The notes beneath the pieces were generated by a model. That model was given only the letters and a program-made list of their open reading frames with translations, made no database searches and was not told the DNA's origin. A DNA stretch of 39,935 bases, taken from UHGV virus genome UHGV-0040432. One strand, given 5' to 3'. Source of the stretch: a virus. A program made the position numbers and the translations under genes. Below, piece by piece: positions 1-38,791 of this stretch; positions within the stretch are counted from its first letter, which is position 1, and every line of letters begins with the position of its first letter.

Positions 1-49
1 AAAATAGCGAAATGATTTTGGATTATCTTCAGAACGGATATTGATAATT

Positions 50-511
50 ATGCTGGGTGATAGCTTTCCTCCTGGGTTTATGGCTAGTTTTAGTCAGAAT
101 AGAGGTATATCACCTGGCGATGTTTTGTATCTACACTGTGAATTTACCACCCCGCCGAAAATTAAATTCATGGTAGTAGTTTGTTGTGAGCCACTTCTTG
201 TTCTTTTGATAAATTCCGAAGTAAACCCATTTATTCAACAAAACCATTCATTGATGGTTTGTCAGGTTGCGATCAGTCAAGCAGACCATGATTTTCTTGA
301 TTGGGACTCCTTTGTAAATTGCATTCAGGCCCATGAAGCATTTGACCTAGAGGTTATCAAAGAGCAGATAGCCGCTGACTATGGTGGGGTTTTGAAGGGG
401 CGTATTACAGATCAATGTATGCAACAAGTTCGGACTGCTGTTATGGCGTCTAAAACAATGGTAAAACGCCACAAAAGATCGATACTTAATGCGCTTCAAC
501 AATATGAGTAA
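50..511 (+). CDS. Hypothetical protein, AT-rich accessory (moron-like) gene
   Basis: Track ORF 41..511 with first ATG at 50; opposite orientation to the neighbouring early genes; followed by a hairpin terminator. No motif recognised. Confidence 0.45.
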   Translation: MLGDSFPPGFMASFSQNRGISPGDVLYLHCEFTTPPKIKFMVVVCCEPLLVLLINSEVNPFIQQNHSLMVCQVAISQADHDFLDWDSFVNCIQAHEAFDLEVIKEQIAADYGGVLKGRITDQCMQQVRTAVMASKTMVKRHKRSILNALQQYE

Positions 512-536
512 ACCCGCTATCTGGCGGGTTTATATT
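511..536 (+). terminator. Intrinsic terminator-like hairpin between convergent genes
   Basis: AACCCGC-tatctg-GCGGGTT stem-loop at 511..530 followed by TATATT. Confidence 0.45.
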
Positions 537-545
537 CAATAAAAT

Positions 546-824
546 TCAGCTAATTTTTCGCTTATCTGTTCTTACTCTCTCCCATTCAATTCTGCCTTCT
601 TCACGCCGCTGGTCTATATACTCAGCAAGATCCTGAATGTTGATGCAGCGCTTCGCTTTCTGTGATGTTCCTACACGATAAGTCGGAATAGGCAACTGAC
701 AGGCATTTGCTTTCGCTTCTGCTGTGTTAGGGCTCATACCGAAATACTTTTGGCATACAGCTGACAGCTCGATGTTAGGCGTGTTGAACTCAGCCATAAG
801 TAAAAACAAAGTATTCATAGACAT
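546..824 (-). CDS. PrtN-like small DNA-binding regulator (pyocin-activator/excisionase-like family)
   Basis: 92-aa ORF; N-terminus MNTLFLLMAEF and overall pattern recalled as PrtN-family; not verified by search. Confidence 0.55.
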   Translation of the reverse strand: MSMNTLFLLMAEFNTPNIELSAVCQKYFGMSPNTAEAKANACQLPIPTYRVGTSQKAKRCINIQDLAEYIDQRREEGRIEWERVRTDKRKIS

Positions 825-856
825 TCTCCATACAACCTGGCTGCACCCAGGGAAAA

Positions 857-1429
857 TTACAGGTCTCTGCTGGTGGCCGGAATCAACTTCTGCCAGATCG
901 CGGACACGTATTTTGCTTGATGTCGCGCATCGGCCAGTGCGTTATGTGCAACCCCATCGAATGGCATATCTCGCTTTGGATCGAAACCCACAACTCTGCC
1001 TAATGTGACGATGGTTCTGACGTCGTGATCGTTACAAAATTGCCACGGGCAAACCTGGCCGGCGTGCTCATATGCGCCGCGCAATATAACGTTGTCGAAA
1101 GTAGCTCCATTGCCCCAAACTTTTAAATATTTTGGGTTATCAGAATGCCGATTAATGAAATGGTTCAGTTCAGATAGGGCAGACGATATCGGCATCGCAT
1201 CATCAACACAGATTGCTGATCGCGCTTCTGAGCTTTGTCTTAACCACCACAGAATAGTGTCACCATCCGGCACCGCTCCCTGCTCCATAGCGCTTTCAAG
1301 GTTAACGGCGGTGTAAAACTCCTGACCCAATTCACCGCTTTGCGGATCGAAGAATACGGCACCAATGGAGACGATAGGGGCATTCGGTTTTTTGCCCATG
1401 GATTCAAGGTCGATCATTAAGTTGTTCAT
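857..1429 (-). CDS. DEDDh-type 3'-5' exonuclease (DnaQ-like)
   Basis: 190-aa ORF with DLESMG (Exo I D-x-E) and HNALADA (Exo III H-x4-D) motifs; overlaps downstream gene start by 4 nt. Confidence 0.7.
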   Translation of the reverse strand: MNNLMIDLESMGKKPNAPIVSIGAVFFDPQSGELGQEFYTAVNLESAMEQGAVPDGDTILWWLRQSSEARSAICVDDAMPISSALSELNHFINRHSDNPKYLKVWGNGATFDNVILRGAYEHAGQVCPWQFCNDHDVRTIVTLGRVVGFDPKRDMPFDGVAHNALADARHQAKYVSAIWQKLIPATSRDL

Positions 1430-1815
1430 ATTTTCTCTCTAATAGCTATGATTTCTTCCCCTTCTAAAGGGAGATGGGTAATCGCGAATGCCCCATCCTT
1501 CTTTTTGCCGATTGCGATAAATAGCGCGCCAATTTCTCTACGCTCAAGCCATGCATCACCACCGTTAACCCGGGTACGTAAGGTTGCCCAATCAGGTGCT
1601 TTTATAAAGTGGCGATAATTACCCTTCAAATATTTCCATACCGGCTCAGCATCAAACGCTGCAATCACCCCATCAATCACCTTCACAGCATCAGCCATTG
1701 CGTAGCCGAGATTACCGCCGTCGCTTTGTGCTGCTGCTTTGCTGAGTATTTCGCTTATCTGGTGCAGGCGATCGAGTGATACAGGACCGTGCGCCGGGTG
1801 GTTGTTAGTTGTCAT
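1426..1815 (-). CDS. Hypothetical phage early protein
   Basis: 129-aa ORF, translationally coupled (ATGA/ATGG-type overlaps) within the leftward operon. Confidence 0.6.
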   Translation of the reverse strand: MTTNNHPAHGPVSLDRLHQISEILSKAAAQSDGGNLGYAMADAVKVIDGVIAAFDAEPVWKYLKGNYRHFIKAPDWATLRTRVNGGDAWLERREIGALFIAIGKKKDGAFAITHLPLEGEEIIAIREKI

Positions 1816-2048
1816 GGGTTAGTCCTCACGGTTCTAAACAATACTGATTGCTGAAAGCCGGTAAGAAACCATAGCCCATCGACTCGCTGGCTCATCTCGT
1901 ACCAGTCTTCCGGGTTAAGGTCGGACACGAGGTTGTCACCACAAATACAAATATCAGGTCCGCGTTTCTCGGAATCATAAATATCACCTGGTGAAAACCA
2001 CTCAGGATTAGTGGAGTGAACACACTCCATTTTTGTTACGTCCGCCAT
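1812..2048 (-). CDS. Hypothetical small Cys-containing protein
   Basis: 78-aa ORF tightly packed in the operon; several Cys residues (C..C.C) may form a metal site. Confidence 0.55.
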   Translation of the reverse strand: MADVTKMECVHSTNPEWFSPGDIYDSEKRGPDICICGDNLVSDLNPEDWYEMSQRVDGLWFLTGFQQSVLFRTVRTNP

Positions 2049-2049
2049 C

Positions 2050-2577
2050 TCATTCCCCCTTCACGCCAATGCCAGCGGCGCGGAGTGCTTCTATGAAAAT
2101 ATCAAGCCCCTGATTAAATCCGATAGCCTCATAAAACTGTTTTGTGTGCATGTCCGGTGAATTGCGATATTGGGGCAGCGTCACTGTCCGCGCCTCCAGT
2201 TCTGCTATGCGCTGCCGAGCAGACTGATAAGCATCGATAACCACGTCCAACAATTGCCCGTCACACAGCAGTTTGCTAAGTTCAGGCTTCCACGCTACGC
2301 AGTCATCATCCGGGTCCTGCATGTTGTAGACGTAAGTATCAAAGGCACCCATAAAGCGCCCGAATCCTCCTTTGTCGTCTACAAGCACTTGCCAGGCGCG
2401 GAGAAGAAACAGTTTTTGGTTACGATCTAAATCCGTTCGGGATAGCTCATCAGCGATAATGCTGCTTTCACTACCGTGCCAGCGAGCGTCATTGCGTTGT
2501 GCCGCATGAAACAACTTCCAGAAATACTCGGTTTCTTTCTGATCAGGACGGCATTGCTTAATTGTATGCACTGTCAT
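2050..2577 (-). CDS. Hypothetical phage early protein
   Basis: 175-aa ORF with protein-like composition; 2-nt gap to the downstream gene. Confidence 0.6.
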   Translation of the reverse strand: MTVHTIKQCRPDQKETEYFWKLFHAAQRNDARWHGSESSIIADELSRTDLDRNQKLFLLRAWQVLVDDKGGFGRFMGAFDTYVYNMQDPDDDCVAWKPELSKLLCDGQLLDVVIDAYQSARQRIAELEARTVTLPQYRNSPDMHTKQFYEAIGFNQGLDIFIEALRAAGIGVKGE

Positions 2578-2605
2578 GCTGCGCGCTCCTGTTTGTTAAG
2601 TGCGG

Positions 2606-2860
2606 TCATTGGACTGTTCCTTTTCTGACTCTGCTCAATAACTTGTTAAACATCATGGTTAGGCTGTTACTGCACCCAAACGGCATATCGTTAACACGGT
2701 ATGTTGGAATGCCCTTGCGAACACCAGACTTCACGATCCGACCGGTGCCATAGAGTTGCGATAATGCGCCAGCGATCGAAGCTGTCTTTTTGTTTAAACC
2801 CTTAGCTATTTCAGCGCTGGTGGCGTTGGGGTGAGCCTGGAGATATTCAAATACGGTCAT
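2606..2860 (-). CDS. Small putative winged-helix DNA-binding protein
   Basis: 84-aa ORF; helix-turn-helix-like segment SAEIAKGLNKKTASIAGALSQL. Confidence 0.55.
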   Translation of the reverse strand: MTVFEYLQAHPNATSAEIAKGLNKKTASIAGALSQLYGTGRIVKSGVRKGIPTYRVNDMPFGCSNSLTMMFNKLLSRVRKGTVQ

Positions 2861-3033
2861 GGAGTTTTACCTTTACGTTCCTGTTCCAGTTGCACCAGAG
2901 ACTCTTTTAATGCTGCGAACGTAGCTTCCAGTCTGGTGGCGACTTCGCGCATAAGAGGTGCATGCTTTGGTGGCAATTCAGCAACGGAGGCAAAAGCCTC
3001 AGCTACGAGTTCTTTTACCTTCATGCGGCGCAT
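2857..3033 (-). CDS. Small hypothetical protein (58 aa; below the ORF-track size cutoff)
   Basis: Own translation of the minus strand: MRRMKVKELVAEAFASVAELPPKHAPLMREVATRLEATFAALKESLVQLEQERKGKTP; fills the gap between flanking genes with ATGA overlap to the downstream start. Confidence 0.4.
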   Translation of the reverse strand: MRRMKVKELVAEAFASVAELPPKHAPLMREVATRLEATFAALKESLVQLEQERKGKTP

Positions 3034-3560
3034 TGGCGCAGTTCCACCAGTTCGTTAAAGCGATTCATGAACAGGCCATAGGCTTGACCAGGACGGAGAG
3101 GGATAACCTGAACGAGATCAGAGCAGGGAATACCTTCGAGAATTTCCCATTTCGAGCCGTCATCGATTTCCAGATCACGGCGCTCGGTAGCTAACATGGT
3201 TAGATCGGCATATTTCACGGCAGCAGCTTGTTCAAGTGAGATACCGAATTTAAAGCGGATAAGACCATCAACATAAGTTTCCATGCGTTGGTAGTCAGGT
3301 AACAGGGCTTTGAGCGGGGCAGGAATATCCTGGCAATATGCCTCCGCAGCGTCGTGCATCAGCGCTTCAAAGGCGAACTCTGGCGGTACAATCTGGCTTA
3401 CAAGCACAGAGTGCTGGGCCACGCTGTAGAATTCTGGCAGATGCCCAGCGAATCGACAGATGTTGGAAAGCGCAGTCGCGATATCCTCAACATCGATATC
3501 GTCGATTGTGGCGGTCAGGTAGTTAAATTTTTTACCGGATAATGTCTGAATGTAGCTCAT
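3021..3560 (-). CDS. HD-domain phosphohydrolase (YfdR-like 5'-deoxynucleotidase family)
   Basis: Contains H..HD motif (SVAQHS, EALMHDAAEAY). Start chosen at MSYIQ because GGAG lies 8 nt upstream; track ORF extends to 3587. Confidence 0.65.
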   Translation of the reverse strand: MSYIQTLSGKKFNYLTATIDDIDVEDIATALSNICRFAGHLPEFYSVAQHSVLVSQIVPPEFAFEALMHDAAEAYCQDIPAPLKALLPDYQRMETYVDGLIRFKFGISLEQAAAVKYADLTMLATERRDLEIDDGSKWEILEGIPCSDLVQVIPLRPGQAYGLFMNRFNELVELRQCAA

Positions 3561-3688
3561 GGTTTTCTCCATATTGGCGCGCTGCACCGCGCAGATTTTG
3601 GTTGCACTAATCCCTCGCCGGGTGGCGATAATTAATGGAATTACGCTTCAATAAATCCCCGCGGCGCCGGGGATTTAATGCAGAGCAA

Positions 3689-4516
3689 TTAGGCTTTAAA
3701 GTTACCGATGAAAGTTTCCACTGATTCACCGTCGAACTTACTGATCAGCAAATCGCGGAATTCGTTGGCGATCTCTTCTTCCTGGGCTTCAAGTTGGACG
3801 ATGCGCAGAACAAAGCAGGGGTCATCGCTGGTCAGCAGGCTGTTACGCAAGCTAAAGCGGCGTTCGCCCAGACCTTCATACGGCACACATTTGAACTCGA
3901 ACGCCACAGGCATTACGTCTTTGCTGCTTGCTTCAACGCTTTGCATCAGCGATTTTTTACCAGCGAAATCACCAGTTTCATGGTCCTGCTGTGTTGCTTG
4001 CTGAATAGTGATACGACGCACAGCCTGAGCTGCCTGGGAAATCTGCATCGTATTGCCATCAGCATCAAACGCCAGCAGGTAATCGCTCCAGTCTTCCAGC
4101 CATTCAGCGATTTGCTTTTGCTTCAAACGTTGACCATCGATCTGCAGTAACGCGCGGAACGGGGCGGTTTTCTTCAGGGTGATCGAAGCAACGTTATCGG
4201 CGTGACCGGGATTATCCAGGGTGCCGATGTTGAACACTGAACGGGCGGTCATGTTGTCAGCATCAATGAAGCAACGGGCTGGATCGCTGGCGCTGGCGTA
4301 ACCTTTAGAATAACGTGCGAAATCGTCAATACTGGTTGTTGTCATTGCACCACGGAAGCGGAAACGCTCCAGAGAAAAGCGCTCAAGGCTTTCAACGCTA
4401 GTGCCATCTGGCAGCAATGCGGTCGGGCAAGCCAGGCCATGAATATCATTCAGGTGGTAGCCAGAAAGGACCAGGTCTTTTACCTGCTGAAATGTACCGC
4501 TGTCTAACTGAGACAT
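3689..4516 (-). CDS. Hypothetical prophage protein (YfdQ/DUF2303-like by recollection)
   Basis: 275-aa ORF; size and position match yfdQ-type genes of enterobacterial prophages; not verified. Confidence 0.55.
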   Translation of the reverse strand: MSQLDSGTFQQVKDLVLSGYHLNDIHGLACPTALLPDGTSVESLERFSLERFRFRGAMTTTSIDDFARYSKGYASASDPARCFIDADNMTARSVFNIGTLDNPGHADNVASITLKKTAPFRALLQIDGQRLKQKQIAEWLEDWSDYLLAFDADGNTMQISQAAQAVRRITIQQATQQDHETGDFAGKKSLMQSVEASSKDVMPVAFEFKCVPYEGLGERRFSLRNSLLTSDDPCFVLRIVQLEAQEEEIANEFRDLLISKFDGESVETFIGNFKA

Positions 4517-4572
4517 AAAAATTCCTTATTAACTGATGATCAAAGTGGTATCAGTGAGTTTGTTGTTGCGGA

Positions 4573-4944
4573 TCACTGAGCCGCTTTAAGCTTTCCATCC
4601 ACCGCGCCAGTGATCCCGAACAGCTGGCCCTGATCTTCCTGCAGGATGGTGAGCTTCCCGCCTTTGTTGACCCACATCGGGGTTTCGGTTGTGTCCTCTT
4701 CGGAAGCCTTACCACGCGGTGTCGGGGTGCTGTAGTTCAGCTTGTGCTTGATCTTGACGCGCTTCTCTTCAACGGAATTACCCATGCGCTCAAAATCAAA
4801 TGTGAGGACTACTTTGCCTTTGTTGCCGTTGTTCAGAACGCCAAGCGCGGTGGTATTAAGTGCTGCCGCGATTTTGTTCATGAACACGCCGGCATCCAGT
4901 TCGCCAAGAAAATCTGGCACTACGGTCATGCGGTCATTACTCAT
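4573..4944 (-). CDS. Hypothetical prophage protein (YfdP-like); first gene of the leftward early operon
   Basis: 123-aa ORF; GAGGG Shine-Dalgarno upstream of the ATG on the minus strand. Confidence 0.55.
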   Translation of the reverse strand: MSNDRMTVVPDFLGELDAGVFMNKIAAALNTTALGVLNNGNKGKVVLTFDFERMGNSVEEKRVKIKHKLNYSTPTPRGKASEEDTTETPMWVNKGGKLTILQEDQGQLFGITGAVDGKLKAAQ

Positions 4945-5815
4945 GGTTTTACCCTCGTTAAGGCGGCTGCCACCGCCGAACTTTCTCCATACACAACAGA
5001 GAAGGGCATCTGCATTGGTCCGCGGCTTGCAGGGACCGCTTTCTTTTTGCCCGGGTGGATTGGGTTATGAGCCCGTCGCCCGGTGATGCCCTTTTCTGTT
5101 GCGTAAAAAGGGCGGTACCGAGGTAGAACATTATCTTCGTCCCCCTTGCATAAGGTTGAAGACCCTGGTACCGCCAAGACTACACACAGCAATACTGGAA
5201 CTACGGTTATCACGGTCCTAAGCGTGATTTGGTTGTGGTGGCCGGTGCTGCGATATTCCGGCATGGGTTGATTACCAGTGACGCACCCTTTCGGGACACT
5301 CCCTCACGGTTTAGCGCATCAGCCTGCGCATTCACCACAACGAAGAGAACATTGCCGGTGTTCGAATCGAACGAACCTTTTCCCTGCCCAACCCTCCCAA
5401 CTAAATGGGACTGTCTGGAATCGAACCAGCACTTATGCCTTGCTCGTCAATGTTCTCATCGTTGTGCCCTGAAAAAGGCTGGCGGTTACCGGACAAGTGG
5501 GAAAACACCGGGCCGCCAGAACAGGGAGTTACTTGTTATAGCTTTGGCCTGCTTTTAACCACATCAGGCGCGGTGGTAGGTATCTTCGGGCGGGGTGCTA
5601 AGGGGGTGATTAGCCCTTGCCCTTAACACTCCTGCTGGTTTTGGTATTCCTGGCTTGGGTATCGCCACCAGCTATAGGAATTTGACTACGAGTCGCGGTT
5701 AATCAGACCGCGTCTCTGTTACCCCTCCCGAAGACACCTGTCAGCGAATCATCCGGTTATTCATACGCCACCGGCGGCTACTTCGTGGGCGTCCTGCCTG
5801 TTCGCTATGGAGTAG
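4945..5815 (-). other. ORF-free leader of the PL transcript; candidate structured noncoding RNA region
   Basis: No minus-strand ORF of 60 aa or more between 5265 and 5922; plus-strand ORFs here overlap in three frames with implausible composition; several GC-rich inverted repeats. Confidence 0.4.
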
Positions 5816-5867
5816 ACAATAAAATTAAATTGCGAATAACGCAAGTATTAAATTGCGATTTGCGCAA
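5816..5867 (-). promoter_or_regulatory. PL-like promoter with two OL-like operators
   Basis: Minus strand reads TTGCGT-17 nt-TATTGT (plus coordinates 5839..5844 and 5816..5821); operators TTGCG-N5-CGCAA at 5830..5844 and 5853..5867. Confidence 0.55.
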
Positions 5868-5876
5868 TATCGAGGC

Positions 5877-5904
5877 GTAAAAAAAACCGCCGTAAAGGCG
5901 GTTT
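5877..5904 (-). terminator. Intrinsic terminator downstream of the repressor gene
   Basis: AACCGCC-gtaaa-GGCGGTT hairpin followed on the minus strand by a U8 run. Confidence 0.75.
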
Positions 5905-5922
5905 CAACATTGATATGTAGTG

Positions 5923-6615
5923 TCAGGCGTGGCGTTTGAATGATTGAGATTGGCTTATCATTACCTTCCCAAAAATGTAAAAACGGTGTTCGTTTGTCTC
6001 ATCCACAGACCATTCTCTATATTTTGGGTTATCCGATATCACCAACAACTTATCAGGTATCATCTGTAATCGTTTGACGTAAATTTTATCATCAAAACCA
6101 AATACATATATTCCATCACCATCGAATTCATGAATAGAGATATCAACGAAGAGAAGATCACCAGGTTCGATAGTCTCAGCCATACTGTCGCCTCGAACGT
6201 TGATTACTTTTACTTGATCTGCCGTTCTTCCGCCGAACATCGCTAGCGCACGTTCATTGTTGTATTCGATTGACCTGATGACATCAATAATATCGCTGCC
6301 TTGAATAAAGCCACCACCAGCGCTGGCACTTACATCAAGAATCTCCACTCTAAACACAGATCCATCTCCAGAATGTGGGTTACTACCACTGTATTCACAT
6401 ACAGTAGTTTTATTTCCGCCTGGAGTAAATAGATCAGCAACGCTAACGCCTAAAGCTTGAGCATATTTGCTAAGTGATTGTTCAGTAAATGACTTCTGTT
6501 TGCCGGTTTCTACGCGCGAGATGTTAGCTCCGTCGACACCAACGGCTTCAGCAAGATCAGCGATTTTTAGACCCTTCGCTGTGCGAAGTTCTCTTATGCG
6601 GTTTCCTATGTTCAT
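5923..6615 (-). CDS. cI: cI-like repressor (N-terminal HTH, C-terminal S24 LexA-type peptidase domain)
   Basis: HTH segment IRELRTAKGLKIADLAEAVGV and GDSM serine motif with downstream Lys. Start set at the ATG giving MNIGNRIREL; track ORF begins at an upstream TTG (6678). Confidence 0.8.
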   Translation of the reverse strand: MNIGNRIRELRTAKGLKIADLAEAVGVDGANISRVETGKQKSFTEQSLSKYAQALGVSVADLFTPGGNKTTVCEYSGSNPHSGDGSVFRVEILDVSASAGGGFIQGSDIIDVIRSIEYNNERALAMFGGRTADQVKVINVRGDSMAETIEPGDLLFVDISIHEFDGDGIYVFGFDDKIYVKRLQMIPDKLLVISDNPKYREWSVDETNEHRFYIFGKVMISQSQSFKRHA

Positions 6616-6635
6616 GCGTCTATTACATGTTTTTT

Positions 6636-6698
6636 TTGCGTGATGTGCAAAGCAACTTGCGCAAGTCGTACGTTCCAATTAATATGCGTATTACGCAA
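6636..6698 (+). promoter_or_regulatory. OR region: PR promoter overlapping three operator-like palindromes
   Basis: PR -35 TTGCGC (6657..6662), 17-nt spacer, -10 TAATAT (6680..6685); operators at 6636..6650, about 6655..6671 and 6684..6698. Confidence 0.6.
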
Positions 6699-7692: not shown

Positions 7693-7872
7693 GTGCGCGA
7701 ACTTAACCGAAGGTTCAAAGACCACCGCGGGGTGCCTGTCCGTTTTATCCGCTGGGAACCAGAAACACAACGCGTTATCTACCTGCGTGATGGCTACCCG
7801 CACGAATGCTTCAGCCCACTTGAGCATTTCAGGCAAAAGTTCAGGGAGATAACGGACGATCATGAGCACTAA
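7693..7872 (+). CDS. Small hypothetical protein (59 aa, GTG start)
   Basis: Own translation: VRELNRRFKDHRGVPVRFIRWEPETQRVIYLRDGYPHECFSPLEHFRQKFREITDDHEH; GGAGGG lies 10 nt upstream. Competes with the compositionally odd track ORF 7469..7852. Confidence 0.3.
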   Translation: MRELNRRFKDHRGVPVRFIRWEPETQRVIYLRDGYPHECFSPLEHFRQKFREITDDHEH

Positions 7873-8719
7873 ATTAACCGGCTACGTATGGGATGGTTGC
7901 GCGGCGTCGGGCATGAAGTTGTCTAGTGTCGCGATCATGGCTCGCCTCGCTGATTTCAGCAGCGATGAGGGCGTGTGCTGGCCGTCCATTGAAACTATTG
8001 CTCGTCAGCTTGGCGCAGGGCCGAGCACTATCAGAACGGCAATCGCAAAGCTTGAAAAAGATGGCTGGCTCACGCGTACACAGCGCCGTAATGGAAACCG
8101 TAATGCGTCGAACGTGTACCGCCTGAATGTGGCGAAACTTCAGGCTGCTGCATTTTCTCAACTGTCAGATTCTGACACGTCAAAATCTGACGCATCAAAA
8201 TTTGACGCCTCAAAAACTGACCCGTCGAAATCTGGCAAAAATGGCGGTTTTGACCCGTCAGAATCTGGCGGGGATCCGTCAGTAAAATCAAAACAAGATC
8301 CACAATTAACTTCAAAACCCTCTTGTCCGGTTGCAGCGCAACCAGACCCTGAAGTCGTGATTACCGACCAGGCAATTTTGGTTCTGACCCATTTGAACCA
8401 GATCAGCGGATCCCGGTATCAGAAATCAAAAACATCCCTGGAGAACATCCGCGCCAGACTGCGTGAGGGATACAGCGTTGCAGACCTGCAACTGGTTATC
8501 GACCTGAAGCATGAGCACTGGCACGAGAACGACGAGCAGTACCAGTACATGCGGCCGGAAACTCTGTTTGGCCCGAAGAAATTCGAGAGCTATCTGCAAA
8601 GCGCTACCCGCTGGGATCAGAAGGGACGGCCTAAACGAGCTGACTGGGGCGCGAAAAAGCGCGATGTGATGGCTTTTGGTCCGGTTGATACAACGATTCC
8701 AGAGGGGTTCAGAGGATGA
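7862..8719 (+). CDS. Replication initiator (lambda O-like organisation: N-terminal HTH, iteron-encoded linker, conserved phage C-terminal domain)
   Basis: 285-aa ORF; tandem DNA iterons inside the gene encode the SKSDASKFDASKTD linker; C-terminal pattern recalled as the conserved phage replication C-terminus. Confidence 0.65.
   Translation: MSTKLTGYVWDGCAASGMKLSSVAIMARLADFSSDEGVCWPSIETIARQLGAGPSTIRTAIAKLEKDGWLTRTQRRNGNRNASNVYRLNVAKLQAAAFSQLSDSDTSKSDASKFDASKTDPSKSGKNGGFDPSESGGDPSVKSKQDPQLTSKPSCPVAAQPDPEVVITDQAILVLTHLNQISGSRYQKSKTSLENIRARLREGYSVADLQLVIDLKHEHWHENDEQYQYMRPETLFGPKKFESYLQSATRWDQKGRPKRADWGAKKRDVMAFGPVDTTIPEGFRG
8173..8289 (+). repeat. Putative ori iterons: four or five tandem 15-bp repeats followed by an AT-rich stretch
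   Basis: TGACACGTCAAAATC, TGACGCATCAAAATT, TGACGCCTCAAAAAC, TGACCCGTCGAAATC, then TGACCCGTCAGAATC after an 18-bp gap, then a partial copy. Confidence 0.6.
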
Positions 8720-9597
8720 CGTTAAACAAATATTGCCAGGCGCTGGCGGCACTACGTAGCCAACCAGCCCACGAACTGAAAGAAGTTGGCGATCAGTGGC
8801 GGACACCGGATCTGCTTTTCTGGGGTATCAACGCGCTATTTGGTCCATTGATTCTGGACTTGTTTGCTGACGACGACAACGCGAAGTGCCCGGCATGGTA
8901 CACCGCCGAAGATAACGCGCTGACGCAGGACTGGTCTGAACGTCTGGCAGAACTGGGCGGCGCTGGTTATGGCAACCCTCCGTATAGCCGTTCTCAGTAC
9001 CACGAGAAGCAGGCGATCACCGGCATGACGCACATCATGAAGTACGCAGCAGCCCAGCGCGAGAAGGGCGGTCGCTATGTATTCCTGATAAAAGCCGCGC
9101 CGAGTGAAACGTGGTGGCCGGAAGATGCCGATCACATTGTATTCATTCGCGGGCGCATTGGGTTCGATCTGCCTGTGTGGTTTGTACCTGCTGACGAAAA
9201 ACAGAAACCCACCAGCGCGTTTTTTGCCGGTGCCATAGCTGTATTCGATAAGTCATGGCGTGGTGAGCGGTTCAGCTATATCAACCGCACAGAACTGGAG
9301 GCAAAAGGTCGGGCATTTATGGCGCTGGCTCAATTCGCTGTTGGCAAAGAGCCGACAATTGCAATGCGGGCACCCCAGGAGCCAGTCATACCATCGGAAA
9401 CTGAGTCACGTATCTGGCCTCTCGAGGTTGGTCTGGTGTTTAACCAGGTGGAAGGCGTTGCCGTATTGAGTGAGGCTCAGCAGAACAAGCTGAAAGCCAA
9501 CATCAATCAACTCTGGCTGGAACGAACTGCCACCAGCGAAATTATCACAATTGCGCGTGGTCTTGTTGGCAGCATGCAGGGGGTAATCCATGCGTGA
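8716..9597 (+). CDS. DNA N6-adenine methyltransferase (phage Dam-like)
   Basis: 293-aa ORF with GNPPY catalytic motif; ATGA overlap with the rep gene. Confidence 0.7.
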   Translation: MTLNKYCQALAALRSQPAHELKEVGDQWRTPDLLFWGINALFGPLILDLFADDDNAKCPAWYTAEDNALTQDWSERLAELGGAGYGNPPYSRSQYHEKQAITGMTHIMKYAAAQREKGGRYVFLIKAAPSETWWPEDADHIVFIRGRIGFDLPVWFVPADEKQKPTSAFFAGAIAVFDKSWRGERFSYINRTELEAKGRAFMALAQFAVGKEPTIAMRAPQEPVIPSETESRIWPLEVGLVFNQVEGVAVLSEAQQNKLKANINQLWLERTATSEIITIARGLVGSMQGVIHA

Positions 9598-11524
9598 GAT
9601 TATCGTTGATAACTTTGCTGGTGGCGGTGGCGCATCAACGGGTATTGAACTGGCGATCGGACGCAGCGTGGATATTGCGATCAACCACGACGAAAACGCC
9701 ATTGCGATGCACAAGACGAACCACCCGGACACACTGCATTACTGCGAATCCGTATTTGACGTGGATCCGGTAGCCGCCACCGGAGGTAATCCTGTTGGGC
9801 TGGCATGGTTTAGCCCGGACTGCCGACACTTCTCGAAGGCAAAAGGCGCAAAGCCTGTGAAAAAAGAGATACGCGGTCTGGCCTGGATTGTTCTGCGTTG
9901 GGCACTGGCGAAGCGACCGCGTGTGATGATGCTGGAGAACGTGGAAGAGTTCAAAACGTGGGGACCGCTGCTGGCCGATGAAATGCGTCCGGATCCTGCC
10001 CGCACTGGCGAAACATTCAATGCATTTGTCGGCATGCTGTCCACAGGCATTCCTGCTGATCACCCGGCACTGGCTGAGGTTTGTGAGTTTCTGTCTATCG
10101 AAAGAGGTAGCGAGCAGGCGCAAAAGCTGGTGGATGGGCTGGGATATGATGTTGATTATCGCGAACTACGCGCGTGTGATTACGGCGCGCCGACGATCCG
10201 CAAACGCTTCTTCATGGTTATGCGTTGCGATGGCTGCCCAATCCAGTGGCCTGCTGTCACCCATGGGGATCCTAAGTCTCTGGAGGTGCAGAGCGGCAGG
10301 CTGATGCCATGGCGTACCGCTGCGGAATGTATCGACTGGAATGTTTCGGCCCTGTCCATCTTCGACCGCAAAAAACCGCTGGCGGAGAACACTCTGAAGC
10401 GGATCGCGCGCGGCATACAGCGCTTTGTTATCGAAAGTGCATCGCCGTTTATTGTGAAGTGCAATCACACGAGCTCAAAAAATGTGTATGACGCTTTTCG
10501 CGGACAGTCACTGAATGAGCCATTACAGACCATTACTAAAAAACTCGGCTACGCGTTAGCCGTTCCACACCTGACAAAATTCCGCACTGGCGCAACCGGG
10601 CAGCCCGTTACCGAACCTGTCCCGACGGTAACCGCTGGCACATCAAAACGCCCGGGTGGGAATGGGCATGCACTCGGGATTGTTGAGGCTGCACTGACGC
10701 CATTCCTGGCGGGTAATGGTGGTAGTGAATACCAGGCTAAACCGCGCCCGCTGGATAAACCTGCTCATACCATTCTGAAGCAATCCCGCGCCTGTCTTGT
10801 TGCGCCAGTGATAGCCCGCCAGTTTGGGGCCAGCGTAGGCCATCGGGCAGACGAACCGAGCGCAACCATCACCGCTGGCGGTGGCGGTAAATCTCAACTG
10901 GTAACGTCTACGCTGATCCAGATGGGTTATGGCGAACGACCTGGACAAGAACCGCGTGTGCTGCGGCTGGATAACCCGCTGGGGACCGTTACTGCAGGTG
11001 GAAATAAATTCGCGACTGTGAGCGCGTTCCTGGCGAAACACTACGGCGGTAACTACACGGGACCGGGTGTCAGTATGGATGAACCCGCGCACTCAGTGAC
11101 CACTGTCGACCATCATGCAGTAGTTGCCTCTCATCTGGTGAAACTGCGTGGAACATGCCGCGACGGGCAACGCCTTGATGTTCCCATGCCAACAATCACC
11201 GCTGGTGGCCAACACGTGGGTGAGGTACGCACATTTCTTGAGACGTATTGCGGGGAAAGTGACGATGAATGGCTGGTAACGATCGATGGGGTTAAATACC
11301 AGATCGTTGATATCGGAATGCGCATGTTGCAGCCGCATGAACTCTACAAAGCGCAGGGCTTCCCGGATGGATACGTTATTGATCAGGACTACCGTGGAAA
11401 TCGCTATGCAAAAGATAAGCAGGTAGCCCGCTGCGGTAATGCGGTACCACCACCATTCGCCAGGGCGCTGGTGGAGGCAAATCTTCCGGAACTGTGTGCA
11501 GTGCAACAGCAGGAGGTGGCATGA
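9590..11524 (+). CDS. DNA cytosine-C5 methyltransferase with extended variable region
   Basis: Motif I DNFAGGGG, catalytic PDC (SPDCRHFS), ENV, RKRFF and C-terminal GNAV; 644 aa with four T[VI]TAGG-type repeats in the variable region. Confidence 0.8.
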   Translation: MREIIVDNFAGGGGASTGIELAIGRSVDIAINHDENAIAMHKTNHPDTLHYCESVFDVDPVAATGGNPVGLAWFSPDCRHFSKAKGAKPVKKEIRGLAWIVLRWALAKRPRVMMLENVEEFKTWGPLLADEMRPDPARTGETFNAFVGMLSTGIPADHPALAEVCEFLSIERGSEQAQKLVDGLGYDVDYRELRACDYGAPTIRKRFFMVMRCDGCPIQWPAVTHGDPKSLEVQSGRLMPWRTAAECIDWNVSALSIFDRKKPLAENTLKRIARGIQRFVIESASPFIVKCNHTSSKNVYDAFRGQSLNEPLQTITKKLGYALAVPHLTKFRTGATGQPVTEPVPTVTAGTSKRPGGNGHALGIVEAALTPFLAGNGGSEYQAKPRPLDKPAHTILKQSRACLVAPVIARQFGASVGHRADEPSATITAGGGGKSQLVTSTLIQMGYGERPGQEPRVLRLDNPLGTVTAGGNKFATVSAFLAKHYGGNYTGPGVSMDEPAHSVTTVDHHAVVASHLVKLRGTCRDGQRLDVPMPTITAGGQHVGEVRTFLETYCGESDDEWLVTIDGVKYQIVDIGMRMLQPHELYKAQGFPDGYVIDQDYRGNRYAKDKQVARCGNAVPPPFARALVEANLPELCAVQQQEVA

Positions 11525-11907
11525 AACTTGTGCTCCCGTTCCCTCCAAGCGTGAACACGTACTGGCGCGCCCCTAATAAGGGGCCGCTGGCCGGTCGTCA
11601 CCTCATTAGCGCTGATGGTCGTAAATACCAGAGCGCTGCCTGCGTGGCGATCATTGAGCAATTACGACGTCTCCCGAAGCCATCGACTGAACCGGCAGCG
11701 GTAGAAATCACTCTGTACCCGCCGGATGCGCGCCGCCGGGATATCGATAATTACAACAAAGCCCTGTTTGACGCGCTGACGCATGCGGGTGTCTGGGAAG
11801 ACGACAGCCAGATTAAGCGCATGCTGGTGGAGTGGGGACCCGTAGTGCCGAAAGGTCGGGTAGAGATAACGATCAGCAGATATGAACCGGCGGGTGCAGC
11901 CGCCTGA
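11521..11907 (+). CDS. rusA: Holliday junction resolvase RusA
   Basis: 128 aa; N-terminus MKLVLPFPPSVNTYW and RRRDIDNYNKALFDALT match RusA as recalled; ATGA overlap with the upstream gene. Confidence 0.8.
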   Translation: MKLVLPFPPSVNTYWRAPNKGPLAGRHLISADGRKYQSAACVAIIEQLRRLPKPSTEPAAVEITLYPPDARRRDIDNYNKALFDALTHAGVWEDDSQIKRMLVEWGPVVPKGRVEITISRYEPAGAAA

Positions 11908-11920
11908 TATGGAGAAAAGT

Positions 11921-12604
11921 ATGAGCCAATTAGCAACAACAGCATTAACCATGTCCAGCAGCGATATTGCTGAGCTGGTGGAATCACGACATGACCATGT
12001 TAAACGGTCCATTGAACGCCTGGCAGAGCGCGGTGTTATTGAACTCCCCCCAATGGGGGAAGTTAAAAATCACCTCAATCAGTCGGTATCGGTTTATCTG
12101 ATAGGGAAGCGGGACAGTTATATCGTTGTCGCGCAGCTGTCGCCGGAGTTTACCGCGCGTCTGGTTGATCGCTGGCAGGAGCTTGAGCAGGCACAGCAGC
12201 AGACGATTCCTCAATCATTCTCTGAAGCCCTACGTCTTGCAGCTGACCTTGCTGAACAAAAACAGCAGTTGACTAACGAACTGGCTGCCGCGGCGCCGAA
12301 GGTAGCGTTTGTTGATCGGTACTGTACAGCCAGTGGGTCAATGTCATTCCGCCAGGTGGCAAAACTGCTTAAGGCCAAAGAGCCAGATCTGCGGTTATTC
12401 CTCCTTGAGAACGACATCATGTATCGCCTTGGCGGAACGATGACCCCACGGCATCAGCATATTGATGCGGGCCGTTTTGAAGTGAAAACCGGCACATCCG
12501 TAACCTCAAATCATGCATTCAGCCAGGCACGTTTCACGGCGAAAGGCGTGCGCTGGATTGGTGGACTGTGGGCAGAACACATTGCCAGGGGGCAGGTCGC
12601 GTGA
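11921..12604 (+). CDS. Rha-family phage regulatory protein / antirepressor
   Basis: N-terminus MSQLATTALTMSSSDIAELVESRHDHVKRSIERL typical of Rha; start at the ATG preceded by GGAGAAAAG. Confidence 0.7.
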   Translation: MSQLATTALTMSSSDIAELVESRHDHVKRSIERLAERGVIELPPMGEVKNHLNQSVSVYLIGKRDSYIVVAQLSPEFTARLVDRWQELEQAQQQTIPQSFSEALRLAADLAEQKQQLTNELAAAAPKVAFVDRYCTASGSMSFRQVAKLLKAKEPDLRLFLLENDIMYRLGGTMTPRHQHIDAGRFEVKTGTSVTSNHAFSQARFTAKGVRWIGGLWAEHIARGQVA

Positions 12605-13596
12605 GAGCTCTGCTTACCCCCGAGATCGCCCATCGTATGGGGATTGTGCTGTTCCGTCCCGGTGCGGAATTGATGCACCTCTTCATGCGTGGTCGCGTTC
12701 TGCTCGAGCCTGAACCAGAAGAAATGGCGTCATTCAGTACCGGGGCTGTTCCGGCAGCCATTCAGCCGCTGGCTGATGATCCGGTAATGCGGCAGGTCTT
12801 CGAGAATGAGAGGGTTATTCAGCGTGCCGGTGGGCTTCCTTCCCTTGAGCAATGGTTGAGTAATCGGTTTGAATGCCAGTGGCCACATTCAACGTGGCAC
12901 GACAAGAACTTCACAACAATGCGGCACCCACCAGGAAGTATTCGCCTGTGCTGGCATTGCGATCACACTTTGTCGGGGCAGCATACCGAACAGCTTGCAG
13001 GTATAGCGGCAGGAAACCTGGTATCCTGGATTCTGGAAGTCATTCGGCGTGATTCTGGTTTTCCCGAGTCGCATATCCTGACGCTTCCGGAACTGTGCTG
13101 GTGGATGGTCAGAAACGACCTGGCTGATGTTATTCCGGAAAGCGTTGCGCACAAAGGGCTGCGCCTTCCGGATGAGAAGATCCGTTCTGTCATGAGGGAA
13201 AGCGACATAGTGCCTTCCTCGTCAGCAACCAGACTCGTGCAGGAGAAGGCGAAGAAGATCCTCACGCTCTCTGTTGATCCGGAGTCGCCAGAGTCTTTCA
13301 TGCTCAGGCCAAAACGTCGCCGCTGGATAAATGAGACGTACACCCGCTGGGTTAAAACACAACCCTGTGAGTGTTGCCGACGGCCAGCAGATGATCCGCA
13401 CCATATCGTAGGGCACGGTATGGGGGGGACAGCAACAAAAGCCCATGACCTCTTCGTGATCCCTCTGTGCAGAGAGTGCCACGACGAGTTACACGCCGAC
13501 GTACCGGCATTCGAGCAGAAGCATGGTACGCAGCTTGAGCTGCTACTGCGTTTTATGGATCGGGCGCTGGCGATCGGCGTAATTGCGAAAGCTTAA
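12601..13596 (+). CDS. Phage protein with C-terminal HNH-like zinc-binding nuclease domain (DUF968-like)
   Basis: C-terminal CECC...HHIVGHG...CRECHDELH motif; GTG start overlapping the upstream stop; the start is uncertain (an in-frame ATG lies at 12637). Confidence 0.5.
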   Translation: MRALLTPEIAHRMGIVLFRPGAELMHLFMRGRVLLEPEPEEMASFSTGAVPAAIQPLADDPVMRQVFENERVIQRAGGLPSLEQWLSNRFECQWPHSTWHDKNFTTMRHPPGSIRLCWHCDHTLSGQHTEQLAGIAAGNLVSWILEVIRRDSGFPESHILTLPELCWWMVRNDLADVIPESVAHKGLRLPDEKIRSVMRESDIVPSSSATRLVQEKAKKILTLSVDPESPESFMLRPKRRRWINETYTRWVKTQPCECCRRPADDPHHIVGHGMGGTATKAHDLFVIPLCRECHDELHADVPAFEQKHGTQLELLLRFMDRALAIGVIAKA

Positions 13597-14307
13597 GTGT
13601 ATGGAGCGCAAAGAAGCATGAATCACCAAGACCTGAATTTTGTAAGAATAGAATTGCGCCGCGCGCTACCTGACCTCTCTGGGGGAACAAAAGGGCAGCT
13701 TGAGGCTTTCAGTGAACACCCACCAGCAGACAAAAATGCCACCCCGCGCCGTGGAATTCATCTCGTCGAACTCGAAGGAGATAAGGGGCCACGCTTTGTT
13801 AACTCACTTTCCGCGCCACTGTATGTGCTGGAAACACGCAGCCGCCGCAGGCCAATGCCGCCGATAAAAGATGCGGAATTTGAGTCCGCGCCGTGGCGTA
13901 GGGCAGTGTCCGCGCTTAGTGGATACCAGCAGGCCTGGTTGCGGTACTGCTACGGTTTTGACCTTAGCTATAAGCACCAGGTAATGATGTGTGAATACGT
14001 CTGGAAAACTTATCAGAAATGCCTGGGTGAAAACTCGCTTCAGGAGCGTGTAGTAAAGAAACTGATAGGTCTGGTATGGCTGGCAGGGCAGGAAATTGCC
14101 GCAACCAGAAATAATGAAACCTATAAAGACTATGCTGGTGCAGCGTTGGCCCGCATGGTTAGCGTTGACCGTTCAACATGGTTGCGTGTTTATTCAGGGC
14201 ACTGGGCTGGGTTAAAGGCCGCTTTTATCCAGCTTGACGAATCTGCGTTGGCCATGGCACTTGAATACTATGAGGAAGAAGAAACCCTCAAAGTGGCAGA
14301 AATGTGA
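13597..14307 (+). CDS. Putative late-gene antiterminator Q
   Basis: 236-aa ORF in the canonical Q position (after nin-like genes, directly upstream of a strong terminator and the lysis/structural genes); Cys-containing central region. Confidence 0.5.
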   Translation: MYGAQRSMNHQDLNFVRIELRRALPDLSGGTKGQLEAFSEHPPADKNATPRRGIHLVELEGDKGPRFVNSLSAPLYVLETRSRRRPMPPIKDAEFESAPWRRAVSALSGYQQAWLRYCYGFDLSYKHQVMMCEYVWKTYQKCLGENSLQERVVKKLIGLVWLAGQEIAATRNNETYKDYAGAALARMVSVDRSTWLRVYSGHWAGLKAAFIQLDESALAMALEYYEEEETLKVAEM

Positions 14308-14889: not shown

Positions 14890-15942
14890 ATGAAAAATAC
14901 TGTAAAAATAAACAGTGCTGAGTTAATCAACGCTGATAGCCTGCATTACGTCGCCACCCTCCCGGATAACTCTATTGATCTGATAGTTACGGATCCGCCG
15001 TACTTCAAAGTGAAGCCCAACGGCTGGGACAACCAATGGAAGGGGGACGAGGACTACTTACGCTGGCTTGATAGCTGTCTGGCTGAGTATGCTCGCGTTC
15101 TTAAATCTGCTGGCAGCATTTACCTGTTTTGCGGTCACCGACTGGCCTCAGATATAGAGATTATGATGCGTGCCCGGTTCAACGTTTTGAATCACATCAT
15201 TTGGGCAAAACCATCGGGCCGTTGGAATGGATGTAATAAAGAAAGCCTGCGTGCGTACTTTCCATCTACGGAACGGATTTTGTTTGCTGAGCACTATCTT
15301 GGGCCGTACACAGGTAAAGAGGATGTTTACGAAAGGAAAAGCACAGAGCTAAAGCAGCACATTATGACGCCGCTGATTGATTACTTCCGTAATGCCCGTG
15401 AATCACTGGGTGTCAGCTCGAAAGAAATAGCTGAGGCAACCGGAAAGAAAAACATGGCGTCACACTGGTTTGGTGCAAGCCAATGGCAACTACCAAATGA
15501 AGTGGACTATAGAAAATTGCAGGAACTGTTCACGCGGATCGCTATCGATAAGCACATTCAGCAGAAGCTTGAACATCCTCACCATCAGCTGGTAGCCACC
15601 TATCAGTCATTAAACCGCAAGTATTCAGAATTGCTGGAGGAATACAAAACCCTCCGGCGCTGCTTCTCTGTTTCCGCTCTTGTTCCGTATACCGACGTAT
15701 GGACGCATAAGCCTGTGCAGTTTTATCCAGGCAAACATCCATGCGAAAAACCTGCCGACATGCTGAAGCAGATCATTAGCGCCAGCAGCAGACCAGGGGA
15801 TATCGTTGCCGATTTCTTTATGGGCTCAGGTTCAACTGTGAAAGCTGCAATAGAACTTGGTCGTCGGGCGATCGGGGTAGAACTGGAAGCTGACAGATTT
15901 ATTCAGACCACCGAAGAGGTGGAAAAATTGATCAAAACATAA
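14890..15942 (+). CDS. DNA methyltransferase, beta-class N6-adenine/N4-cytosine type
   Basis: DPPY motif near the N-terminus and FFMGSGST (FxGxG) near the C-terminus, the permuted order typical of beta-class amino-methyltransferases. Confidence 0.75.
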   Translation: MKNTVKINSAELINADSLHYVATLPDNSIDLIVTDPPYFKVKPNGWDNQWKGDEDYLRWLDSCLAEYARVLKSAGSIYLFCGHRLASDIEIMMRARFNVLNHIIWAKPSGRWNGCNKESLRAYFPSTERILFAEHYLGPYTGKEDVYERKSTELKQHIMTPLIDYFRNARESLGVSSKEIAEATGKKNMASHWFGASQWQLPNEVDYRKLQELFTRIAIDKHIQQKLEHPHHQLVATYQSLNRKYSELLEEYKTLRRCFSVSALVPYTDVWTHKPVQFYPGKHPCEKPADMLKQIISASSRPGDIVADFFMGSGSTVKAAIELGRRAIGVELEADRFIQTTEEVEKLIKT

Positions 15943-19043: not shown

Positions 19044-21161
19044 ATGCGACAGGCCACGGCGGCGGAGCTAAGAAAAAACACTGCCGGGATCATCAGAGCA
19101 CCGCGTCGAATGCCTGTAGCCGAAGCCGTACATAAATATATGCGTGTTCCGGTCGGCGTGGGTAACTCCGTTGAGTGGGATCCTAATCTTGCCCCTTATG
19201 TTGTGGAGCCGATGAACTGCCTGGCATCACGCGAATATGATGCTGTCATTTTTGTTGGCCCTGCCCGAACGGGTAAAACCATTGGTCTGATTGATGGCTG
19301 GGTGGTGTACAACGTTGTCTGTGATCCGTCTGACATGCTCATCATTCAGATGACGGAAGAAAAAGCGCGCGAACACTCAAAAAAACGTCTGGCCCGAACA
19401 TTTCGTGTCAGCCCGGAGGTTGCATGCCGGCTGAGTCCTTCACGCAATGACAACAACGTGCATGACCGGACTTTCCTTGCCGGGAACTACCTGAAGATAG
19501 GCTGGCCGTCTATCAACATCATGTCGTCCTCAGATTTTAAGTGTGTGGCTCTGACGGATTACGATCGCTTCCCAGAAGATATCGACGGGGAAGGGGACGG
19601 ATTTTCGCTTGCTTCAAAACGTACCACCACCTTTATGTCGGCGGGGATGACGCTGGTCGAGAGTTCACCGGGCAGGGAAATAACCAATACGAAGTGGCGG
19701 AGAAAGTCACCTCACGAAGCCCCTCCCACGACCGGGATCCTGTCTTTATATAACCGCGGCGATCGTCGTCGCTGGTACTGGCCATGTCCACATTGTGGGG
19801 AATATTTCCAACCGGCCATGGAGGCGATGACAGGCTACCGGGAAACGTCTGACCCGGTAAAAGCCAGTGAAGCGGCGCATATTGAATGTCCGCATTGTAG
19901 CGGCATGATTACCGCCGACAGGAAGCGGGAACTGAACGGAAAGGGTGTCTGGTTGCGAGAGGGACAGACTATCGACCGTGAGGGCAACATCACCGGAGAA
20001 GCCCGACGCTCGCGCATTGCCTCGTTCTGGATGGAAGGACCAGCGGCGGCATACCAGACATGGGCGCAACTGGTTTACAAATTACTGACGGCGGAGCAGG
20101 ACTATGAGGCCACCGGCAGCGAAGAAACGCTCAAGACGGTAATTAATACGGACTGGGGGCTGCCTTATCTTCCCCGTGCAGCCAGTGAGCAGCGACGTGC
20201 TGACGTGCTGATGCTGCGGGCAGAAGACTATGGCAAACGACTTGTGCCGCCGAAAGTCCGTTTTCTTCTGGCTTCGGTGGATGTGCAGGGTGGGAAGAAG
20301 CGCCGTTTTGTCGTCCAGATCATCGGGTACGGTGAAAACGGCGAACGCTGGCTGGTGGACCGCTATAACATCCGCCAGTCCCTGCGTTGTGATGAAAATG
20401 GTGAGGCACAGCAGGTGCATCCCGGATCCTATCCGGAAGACTGGCAACTGCTCATCACGGATGTCCTCGAAAAAACCTATGCGTTGCAGTCAGACCCTTC
20501 GCGACGGATGCCCATTCTTGCAATGGCTGTCGACAGCGGCGGGGAAGATGGGGTTACGGATAACGCCTATAAATTCTGGCGCCAGTGTCGTCGTGACGGA
20601 CTGGGTAAACGGGTTTACCTGATAAAAGGTGACAGCACCCGACGCCAGAAAATCATTACTAAAACGCACCCTGACAACACAGGCCGAAGCGATCGCCGGG
20701 CGGATGCGCGTGGTGAGGTTCCGGTATATCTGTTGCAGACAGACCTGCTAAAAGATCAGCTCAGTAACAACCTTGAGCGTGAAACACCCGGTGCCGGGTA
20801 TATCCATTTTCCTGACTGGCTGGGGGAGTGGTTCTACGAAGAACTGACCTACGAAGAACGCGGTACGGACGGAAAATGGCGCAAACCCGGAAAAGGTAAT
20901 AACGAAGCCTTTGACCTTTTCTGTTATGCCCACGCCGTCGCTGTCCTGCGTGGTTATGAAAAAATCCGGGACTGGGAACAGCCCCCGGCATGGGCAGCTG
21001 CTCAGGAGAGTAATTCAAACATCATTGACGGGGAACGCCCCAGGGAGATTGCTGTGAAAAAAGCGGTACCTGTACGTTCGTCTCCTGTTTCTGTAACTGA
21101 ACAGCCCAGCCCGCTTTCTGGTGGCTGGCTGGGTGTCAGTGACAACGGAGGCTGGCTGTGA
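19044..21161 (+). CDS. Terminase large subunit (lambda gpA-like)
   Basis: 705 aa; Walker A VGPARTGKT; size and position as in lambda A. Confidence 0.85.
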   Translation: MRQATAAELRKNTAGIIRAPRRMPVAEAVHKYMRVPVGVGNSVEWDPNLAPYVVEPMNCLASREYDAVIFVGPARTGKTIGLIDGWVVYNVVCDPSDMLIIQMTEEKAREHSKKRLARTFRVSPEVACRLSPSRNDNNVHDRTFLAGNYLKIGWPSINIMSSSDFKCVALTDYDRFPEDIDGEGDGFSLASKRTTTFMSAGMTLVESSPGREITNTKWRRKSPHEAPPTTGILSLYNRGDRRRWYWPCPHCGEYFQPAMEAMTGYRETSDPVKASEAAHIECPHCSGMITADRKRELNGKGVWLREGQTIDREGNITGEARRSRIASFWMEGPAAAYQTWAQLVYKLLTAEQDYEATGSEETLKTVINTDWGLPYLPRAASEQRRADVLMLRAEDYGKRLVPPKVRFLLASVDVQGGKKRRFVVQIIGYGENGERWLVDRYNIRQSLRCDENGEAQQVHPGSYPEDWQLLITDVLEKTYALQSDPSRRMPILAMAVDSGGEDGVTDNAYKFWRQCRRDGLGKRVYLIKGDSTRRQKIITKTHPDNTGRSDRRADARGEVPVYLLQTDLLKDQLSNNLERETPGAGYIHFPDWLGEWFYEELTYEERGTDGKWRKPGKGNNEAFDLFCYAHAVAVLRGYEKIRDWEQPPAWAAAQESNSNIIDGERPREIAVKKAVPVRSSPVSVTEQPSPLSGGWLGVSDNGGWL

Positions 21162-38760: not shown

Positions 38761-38791
38761 AAAAAAAAGCCCGTTTATACGGGCTTTCGTT
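38761..38791. terminator. Bidirectional intrinsic terminator between the umuD'-like gene and the integrase gene
   Basis: A8 run, AAGCCCG-tttata-CGGGCTT hairpin, T-rich tail. Confidence 0.7.

Follow-up and report, generated by a model that had tools for sequence, protein, structure and literature searches.

The window analysed here, a stretch of viral DNA of 39,935 nt (UHGV-0040432), encodes a 644-aa protein which, judged by its sequence motifs, is very probably an active C5-cytosine DNA methyltransferase, and which carries seven contiguous homologous units between its catalytic motifs VIII and IX. It is likely that this array constitutes a modular DNA-recognition region. The explanation favored here is that of an active orphan C5 methyltransferase of a lambdoid-type prophage, in which seven homologous strand-plus-loop modules make up the variable region and render the enzyme multispecific; taken as a whole, we consider this reading an evenly balanced proposition. 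That two or more of the units would confer distinct target sequences, as analogy suggests, has at best an even chance of being correct. Such an enzyme would most likely act in anti-restriction and recognize more than one target sequence.

Gene, catalytic motifs and genomic neighbourhood

The gene is complete in the list of open reading frames (9590..11524, plus strand), in agreement with the length of 644 aa given by the initial annotation. Its product matches Pfam family PF00145 (E 4e-20, 72.9 bits; cut-off 22); the alignment to the model is confined to the motifs of the N-terminal part and to the very C-terminus. From NCBIfam only the generic dcm superfamily was returned, with a score that fell short of the cut-off. 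Motifs I, IV, VI, VIII, IX and X of C5 methyltransferases occur in this order, all on the plus strand, and are invariant in alignment A3. Motif I (FAGGGG, aa 9-14, 9614..9631), predicted to bind AdoMet, has F9 and G11-G14 invariant in alignments A3 and A4. Motif IV (SPDCRHFS, 9812..9835) contains the catalytic Cys78, and its residues S75, P76, D77 and C78 (SPDC, aa 75-78) are invariant in 12 relatives of 46-59% identity. Motif VI (ENV, aa 116-118, 9935..9943) is invariant in both alignments, and motif VIII (TIRKRFF, aa 202-208, with RKR at 204-206; 10193..10213), which has the invariant arginines R204 and R206, pairs in alignment with the same motif of PDB entry 3g7u. Motif IX (RMLQPHELYKAQGFP, aa 578-592, RML..GFP; 11321..11365) is matched by positions 268-321 of the Pfam profile and could also be aligned to the PDB sequences of DNMT1 and 3g7u, while motif X (GNAV, aa 616-619, 11435..11446) retains G616 and N617 as invariant residues. 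The two-domain fold of C5 enzymes, in which a small recognition domain accompanies the Rossmann-like catalytic domain, is likewise present. By exact look-up, an identical protein was found in Citrobacter portucalensis (WP_118263028.1); its 90%-identity cluster comprises 1,124 members from Salmonella, Citrobacter and E. coli, and all of them are named merely 'DNA cytosine methyltransferase'.

The ATG of the C5 gene lies in an 8-nt overlap with the stop of the upstream gene, which encodes a phage Dam-type N6-adenine methyltransferase (8716..9597, plus strand; PF05869, E 4e-44) and is itself preceded by a gene for a replication protein (7862-8719). Downstream follow RusA (11494-11907), Ant/Rha (11882-12604), an ORF of 342 aa with a DUF968 domain (12568-13596; E 5e-78) and the antiterminator Q (13597-14307). 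In this early rightward block the C5 gene sits between the replication genes and Q, a position which, by lambdoid analogy, suggests that it would be expressed during lytic growth and not in the lysogen. No restriction enzyme gene was found near the C5 gene among these neighbours, and thus no adjacent cognate endonuclease as in a type II restriction-modification system; PADLOC matches at the locus were restricted to methylase models. As an adjacent restriction enzyme gene is lacking, we regard the C5 methylase as an orphan.

An integrase gene (38791-39885, minus strand) is located at the right-hand end, early-left genes and a cI-like repressor (41-6678; repressor at 5923-6678, minus strand) lie at the left, and tail and baseplate genes are found between them, as is the terminase (19044-21161). 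With the integrase to the right and the repressor to the left, the window appears to hold most of one prophage. Three orphan DNA methyltransferase genes are present on this prophage (8716-9597, 9590-11524 and 14890-15942). The third of these, a beta-class N6/N4 methylase (PF01555), is encoded just downstream of Q, and its best relatives in the PDB are 9c3u and 8urk, both labelled 'Methyltransferase', and M.RsrI. The DUF968 ORF, two genes downstream of the C5 methylase, has a weak match to the HNHc_6 nuclease model and a Cys/His-rich C-terminus; it was not called a defence or restriction protein by PADLOC.

The repeat array and its natural variants

The initial annotation had drawn attention to four T[VI]TAG-containing segments in the variable region of the protein. 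All four exist (aa 346, 426, 466 and 535; nt 10625, 10865, 10985 and 11192), they do lie between motifs VIII and IX, and in 20,000 shuffles of the protein the motif never occurred more than once per shuffle. As a count of the repeats, however, four is too low, as the region contains seven contiguous units of 34-44 aa each, which follow one another without spacers from aa 297 to aa 555 (nt 10478-11254). The cores of the three units that had been missed read EPLQTITKK, KPAHTILKQ and EPAHSVTTVDHH. Scored with a leave-one-out HMM built from the other six, every unit reached 8.0-23.8 bits and outperformed all 500 of its own shuffles.

All units are encoded on the plus strand. Unit 1 (aa 297-334, 10478..10591) has the core EPLQTITKK and reached 15.1 bits, a score equalled by 0 of 500 shuffles; it was among those missed, as were units 3 and 6. 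Unit 2 (aa 335-378, 10592..10723; core EPVPTVTAGTSKRPGGNGHALG) is distinguished by a long loop and is followed by unit 3 (aa 379-413, 10724..10828; core KPAHTILKQSRA). Unit 4 (aa 414-448, 10829..10933; core EPSATITAGGGGKSQLV) is of a type also found in relatives at only ~47-59% identity. After unit 5 (aa 449-487, 10934..11050; core NPLGTVTAGGNKFA) comes unit 6 (aa 488-521, 11051..11152; core EPAHSVTTVDHHAVV), the counterpart of the well-modelled unit in a two-unit relative, P0223, that is described below. Unit 7 (aa 522-555, 11153..11254; core VPMPTITAGGQHVGEVRTFL) belongs to a class which is normally next to last in the family and is the last one here. The shared scaffold consists of G5, P11, T14, [VI]15, T16, V25, L29 and G34. 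At the DNA level, similarity between units is limited to stretches of 12-28 nt at conserved codons, so that the duplications that gave rise to them must be old. The array is rich in Gly and Thr and net basic, and among close homologues its identity is 92.5%, as compared to 92.6% for the catalytic core.

The terminal unit of the TKDRFGLV type is absent from the 644-aa protein and its close relatives (aa 556-577, nt 11255-11320; alignments A3 and A8), and a short stretch, ESDDEW, links unit 7 straight to the beta-hairpin that precedes motif IX. In some close relatives, 17 additional residues (TLAVTEYDEDRAQQTLA) separate unit 7 from this hairpin.

Comparison of homologues shows that the units are gained and lost as wholes. 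Close homologues (at least 84% identity) have lengths of 570 to 700 aa that fall into classes set apart by the presence or absence of complete units, in register: unit 2 is missing in the 599-aa relative P0064, unit 3 in P0066 (609 aa) and P0102, and unit 5 in relatives of 605 (P0023), 626 and 629 aa, while relatives of 679-700 aa, such as P0003 (679 aa) and P0013 (691 aa), have an extra unit after unit 6, which is one of two kinds. An extreme case is the natural relative P0223 (488 aa), which possesses equivalents of units 6 and 7 only and can be aligned, with 46% identity, to the 644-aa protein as far as the C-terminus; units 1-5 are thus dispensable in nature. Among 150 representatives sharing no more than 50% mutual identity, every one had a different ordered unit architecture. 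Units were assigned to classes by greedy clustering on profile columns, since single-linkage clustering had merged all of them into one cluster. By this classification, the upstream class pairs occurred in both orders in 20 of the 40 cases that could be tested, whereas the two final classes stay in place: a TxDRFGLV-type unit occupies the final place in ~94 of the 150 representatives, and a GGxHxxEVRAFL unit normally stands next to last. Within the enterobacterial subfamily the order of units is largely conserved. In architecture alone, the seven contiguous units of 34-44 aa correspond to the tandem recognition modules of SPR-type multispecific enzymes, of which two or more, each ~40-50 aa long and non-overlapping, separate motif VIII from motif IX of a single catalytic core. 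The unit losses, the extra units, the shuffled order and P0223 demonstrate that these modules are separable while the rest of the enzyme stays intact.

Unit structure and possible functions of the array

Structure prediction, which the initial annotation had named as a way to examine the repeats, was informative for the catalytic domain and for one unit of the two-unit relative, but not for the seven-unit array itself. AlphaFold2, run on the full 644-aa protein with an alignment of 86 homologues, returned a confident catalytic domain, while aa 252-576 had a pLDDT of ~25 and no secondary structure, although the alignment columns in this region were well filled. The model of P0223, obtained with 142 diverse representatives, was considerably better (pLDDT 85.5, pTM 0.86). 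Here, each hydrophobic half in the successive units is modelled as a beta-strand (residues 318-326 and 350-359), and the intervening Gly-rich half (..ESPIGTITTVD.., with the P..T[VI]T pattern) as a 23-residue loop with a pLDDT of 83-87. The modelled unit therefore consists of a strand and a long loop, placed within a small domain that superimposes on M.HhaI; the second unit was predicted poorly (pLDDT ~40).

The most variable positions of the unit in the family as a whole are 18-22, and the scaffold positions are near-invariant. When units are compared by type, positions 13 and 18-21, which adjoin the T[VI]T core and fall into the loop, are near-fixed within a type and highly variable between types, with a difference of 2.3-2.6 bits between the between-type and the within-type entropy, a contrast that is inflated because the types were defined from the same columns. 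Positions 7-10 vary even inside a type. A pattern of this kind at positions 13 and 18-21 is the one expected of specificity-determining residues. In M.HhaI, recognition loop 2 starts at the conserved T250-L251, and in M.HaeIII the base-contacting arginines flank the segment EPAFTVQASGR. By analogy, the type-defining residues of the units sit at the corresponding place.

That a phage methylase may carry recognition modules in tandem is already established for Bacillus, where the multispecific phage enzymes possess 2-5 recognition domains. The Bacillus enzymes M.SPRI, M.Phi3TI, M.Rho11sI, M.H2I, M.phiBssHII and M.BceSV are, like the 644-aa protein, phage or prophage orphans with a single catalytic core. 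In both groups, contiguous modules of ~35-50 aa with a P-x-T-[LIV]-T-like core are inserted between motifs VIII and IX. We retrieved and aligned the original SPR, rho11s, phi3T and H2 genes; they share a core, and modules of the type ..G[LIV]SPT[IL]TT.. occur or are missing as blocks, as in the repeat family. An element conserved in front of motif IX (EPxxTVxTxDRxGV) takes the form DEPAFTVNTIDRHGV in the Bacillus enzymes and is represented by the TKDRFGLV class in most members of the repeat family, unlike the 644-aa protein, which is devoid of the usual final TKDRF unit. In contrast, the catalytic cores of the two groups are related only at the level of PF00145, the repeat family has regular 34-aa repeats, up to 12 per protein, that a single profile detects, and its hosts are mainly Proteobacteria rather than Bacillus. 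The unit profile lands exactly on the PT[IL]T and DEPAFTV places of the Bacillus enzymes and yet scores ~0 bits against SPR, phi3T, rho11s and H2; an HhaI sequence gave no significant score either, and no match was found among all PDB sequences. Pfam, searched with the array alone and with each unit fused to the C-terminus, yielded no match to the array at E<=10 and recognized only motifs IX and X. Because of the ~0-bit scores and the lack of a PDB match, the likeness to the Bacillus modules is one of organization and motif, with no demonstrable homology to characterized recognition domains. The resemblance to tandem target-recognition domains proposed in the initial annotation thus stands with regard to modular units, a strand-loop build and the same organizational logic, but does not extend to detectable sequence similarity. 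As similarity to SPR, phi3T, rho11s and H2, to PDB sequences and to Pfam families is not significant, the equation of a unit with a recognition domain rests on the likeness of the motifs, on where the units lie in the protein and on a single structural model.

Other enzymes are more distant in organization. M.HhaI and M.HaeIII, for which DNA complexes have been solved, are monospecific type II enzymes of 327-330 aa with one recognition region and ~21-22% identity to the 644-aa protein, and the unit profile misses both. The PDB entry 3g7u, a putative DNA modification methyltransferase of 376 aa from an E. coli prophage, has no repeat array. A functional analogy exists to M.EcoGII, also an orphan prophage methylase, which is thought to modify phage DNA in lytic growth and thereby to evade many restriction systems; it is, however, a beta-class adenine methylase, and its breadth arises from missing specificity and not from arrayed modules.

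Three other readings of the array have to be considered. The seven units might be structural repeats of a single beta-sheet which jointly read one site, the array being one enlarged recognition domain; the site could then be long, degenerate or bipartite, and the number of units would tune affinity or geometry without adding targets. We consider this unlikely, but it is in line with several observations: the two-unit model places the strands of consecutive units in one small domain, the last two classes have a fixed order throughout the family, unit order in the enterobacterial subfamily is largely conserved, and repeat proteins generally tolerate changes in repeat number. A cooperative reader of one site would, however, be expected to break when single internal units are gained or lost, as happens between near-identical enzymes. 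It also fits poorly with half of the testable upstream class pairs occurring in both orders, with loop residues that sharply define unit types across ~47-59% identity, as if each type had its own task, and with the existence of a natural two-unit enzyme. Even less probable, in our view, is that the array serves as a flexible, basic DNA tether of low specificity. Many units would then be inactive pseudo-domains, and the enzyme would be promiscuous, its target motif being very short or relaxed, with an effect analogous to that of the non-specific M.EcoGII. The Gly/Thr-rich and net basic composition and the lack of a fixed array structure in AlphaFold point in this direction, as do two further orphan methylase genes on the same prophage and the knowledge that prophages carry promiscuous orphan methylases which are silent in lysogens. 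A generic tether would not be expected to show strongly conserved, type-specific loop residues, however, nor an array conserved equally with the catalytic core, and one unit was confidently modelled as an ordered strand-loop-strand element.

That the units are ankyrin-like helical repeats which mediate protein-protein interaction instead of DNA reading seems hardly credible. The idea arises from a phmmer match of two units (the C-terminal pair of a relative, searched against the PDB) to a designed ankyrin protein and from a similar spacing (P-L-H ... H ... LV ... L ... G) with a period of 33-34 residues. The match is non-significant (E 1.2, the level of chance), at E<=10 the array matches no Pfam family, ankyrin or other, the model shows beta-strands in place of helices for the hydrophobic segments, AlphaFold predicted no helices in the seven-unit array, and the T-[VI]-T core is rich in beta-branched residues. 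Identity as an ankyrin repeat was rejected on account of the silent Pfam models and the modelled strands.

Under the multispecific reading, it might be hypothesized that every module arose by duplication of the 'TL' recognition loop, the canonical element with which C5 methyltransferases read DNA. The strands of the modules would extend one beta-sheet scaffold, and the loops would act as alternative DNA-reading heads. The enzyme might then methylate several different short sequences, as do those of the Bacillus phages SPR, phi3T and rho11s. Transcribed together with the early lytic genes from its place between the replication genes and Q, it would leave the DNA of progeny phages pre-methylated against several host restriction systems. 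Reviews describe the tandem recognition domains of phage methyltransferases as an anti-restriction device. The gain, loss and reordering of units, the size of the family and the orphan status make an SPR-like multispecific enzyme plausible. Among the points against it is the reach of the loops, as seven of them on one sheet would each have to get to a single active site.

Distribution of the repeat family and implications

A search across 1.84 billion cluster representatives, with E<=0.001 as threshold, yielded 8,382 relatives, of which 2,559 (50%-identity clusters) also passed E<=1e-30; their hosts are mainly Proteobacteria. The unit profile, rebuilt from family sequences, has the consensus TGSRGQPLDEPLPTVTAGGGHFALVAAFLVKYYG; with this refined profile, 0-12 units per protein were counted, most commonly 6-8. 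By tblastn, the array was detected in 103 phage records, all with generic annotations, including phages of Pseudomonas (among them F116), Vibrio, Aeromonas, Rhizobium, Burkholderia, Pectobacterium (ZF40) and Myxococcus (Mx4). PHROG 23072 spans the array but is named just 'DNA methyltransferase'. In the searched literature, a 2025 review included, no tandem recognition domains are described outside the enzymes of Bacillus phages and prophages, and no characterized homologue of the repeat family was found there. Neither this family of regular 34-aa repeats nor its scale, its unit numbers or its proteobacterial range is described in the searchable literature.

If the units are independent reading heads, multispecific cytosine methylation would extend from a few Bacillus phage enzymes to thousands, affecting prophages of Salmonella, Citrobacter, Klebsiella, Enterobacter, Yersinia, Pseudomonas and Vibrio, among others. 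A natural collection of short, portable cassettes of specificity would then also become available for methyltransferase engineering, and part of the ability of temperate phages to overcome restriction barriers would be explained. A bolder version, to which we give only tentative credence and which is somewhat unlikely, holds that this proteobacterial C5 family possesses up to ~12 interchangeable 34-aa cassettes, each with its own target, so that one enzyme would recognize at least five unrelated sites, and that phages re-assort the cassettes to track host restriction. Five or more unrelated sites per enzyme would exceed those of any characterized methyltransferase. Activities of this kind could easily have escaped notice in published methylomes, since PacBio sequencing detects 5mC poorly. 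Natural variants that differ by deletion or insertion of one unit make the question of multispecificity directly testable.

Two further types of insertion were observed in the family outside the array. In P0018, P0039 and P0043, a segment of ~21-24 aa, e.g. PPKPDLPEALMADFIGPVYP, follows motif VI (columns 131-154 of alignment A1); it is missing from the 644-aa protein, where the equivalent position is aa ~130 (nt ~9977). The family members of ~1,000 aa (P0130, P0176, P0216 and P0200; 938-1113 aa) contain an intein with a Hint domain, inserted at or beside the catalytic motif IV (SPDC), at the equivalent of aa ~77 (nt ~9818), and in P0176 and P0216 the intein has a LAGLIDADG homing-endonuclease domain in addition to Hint.
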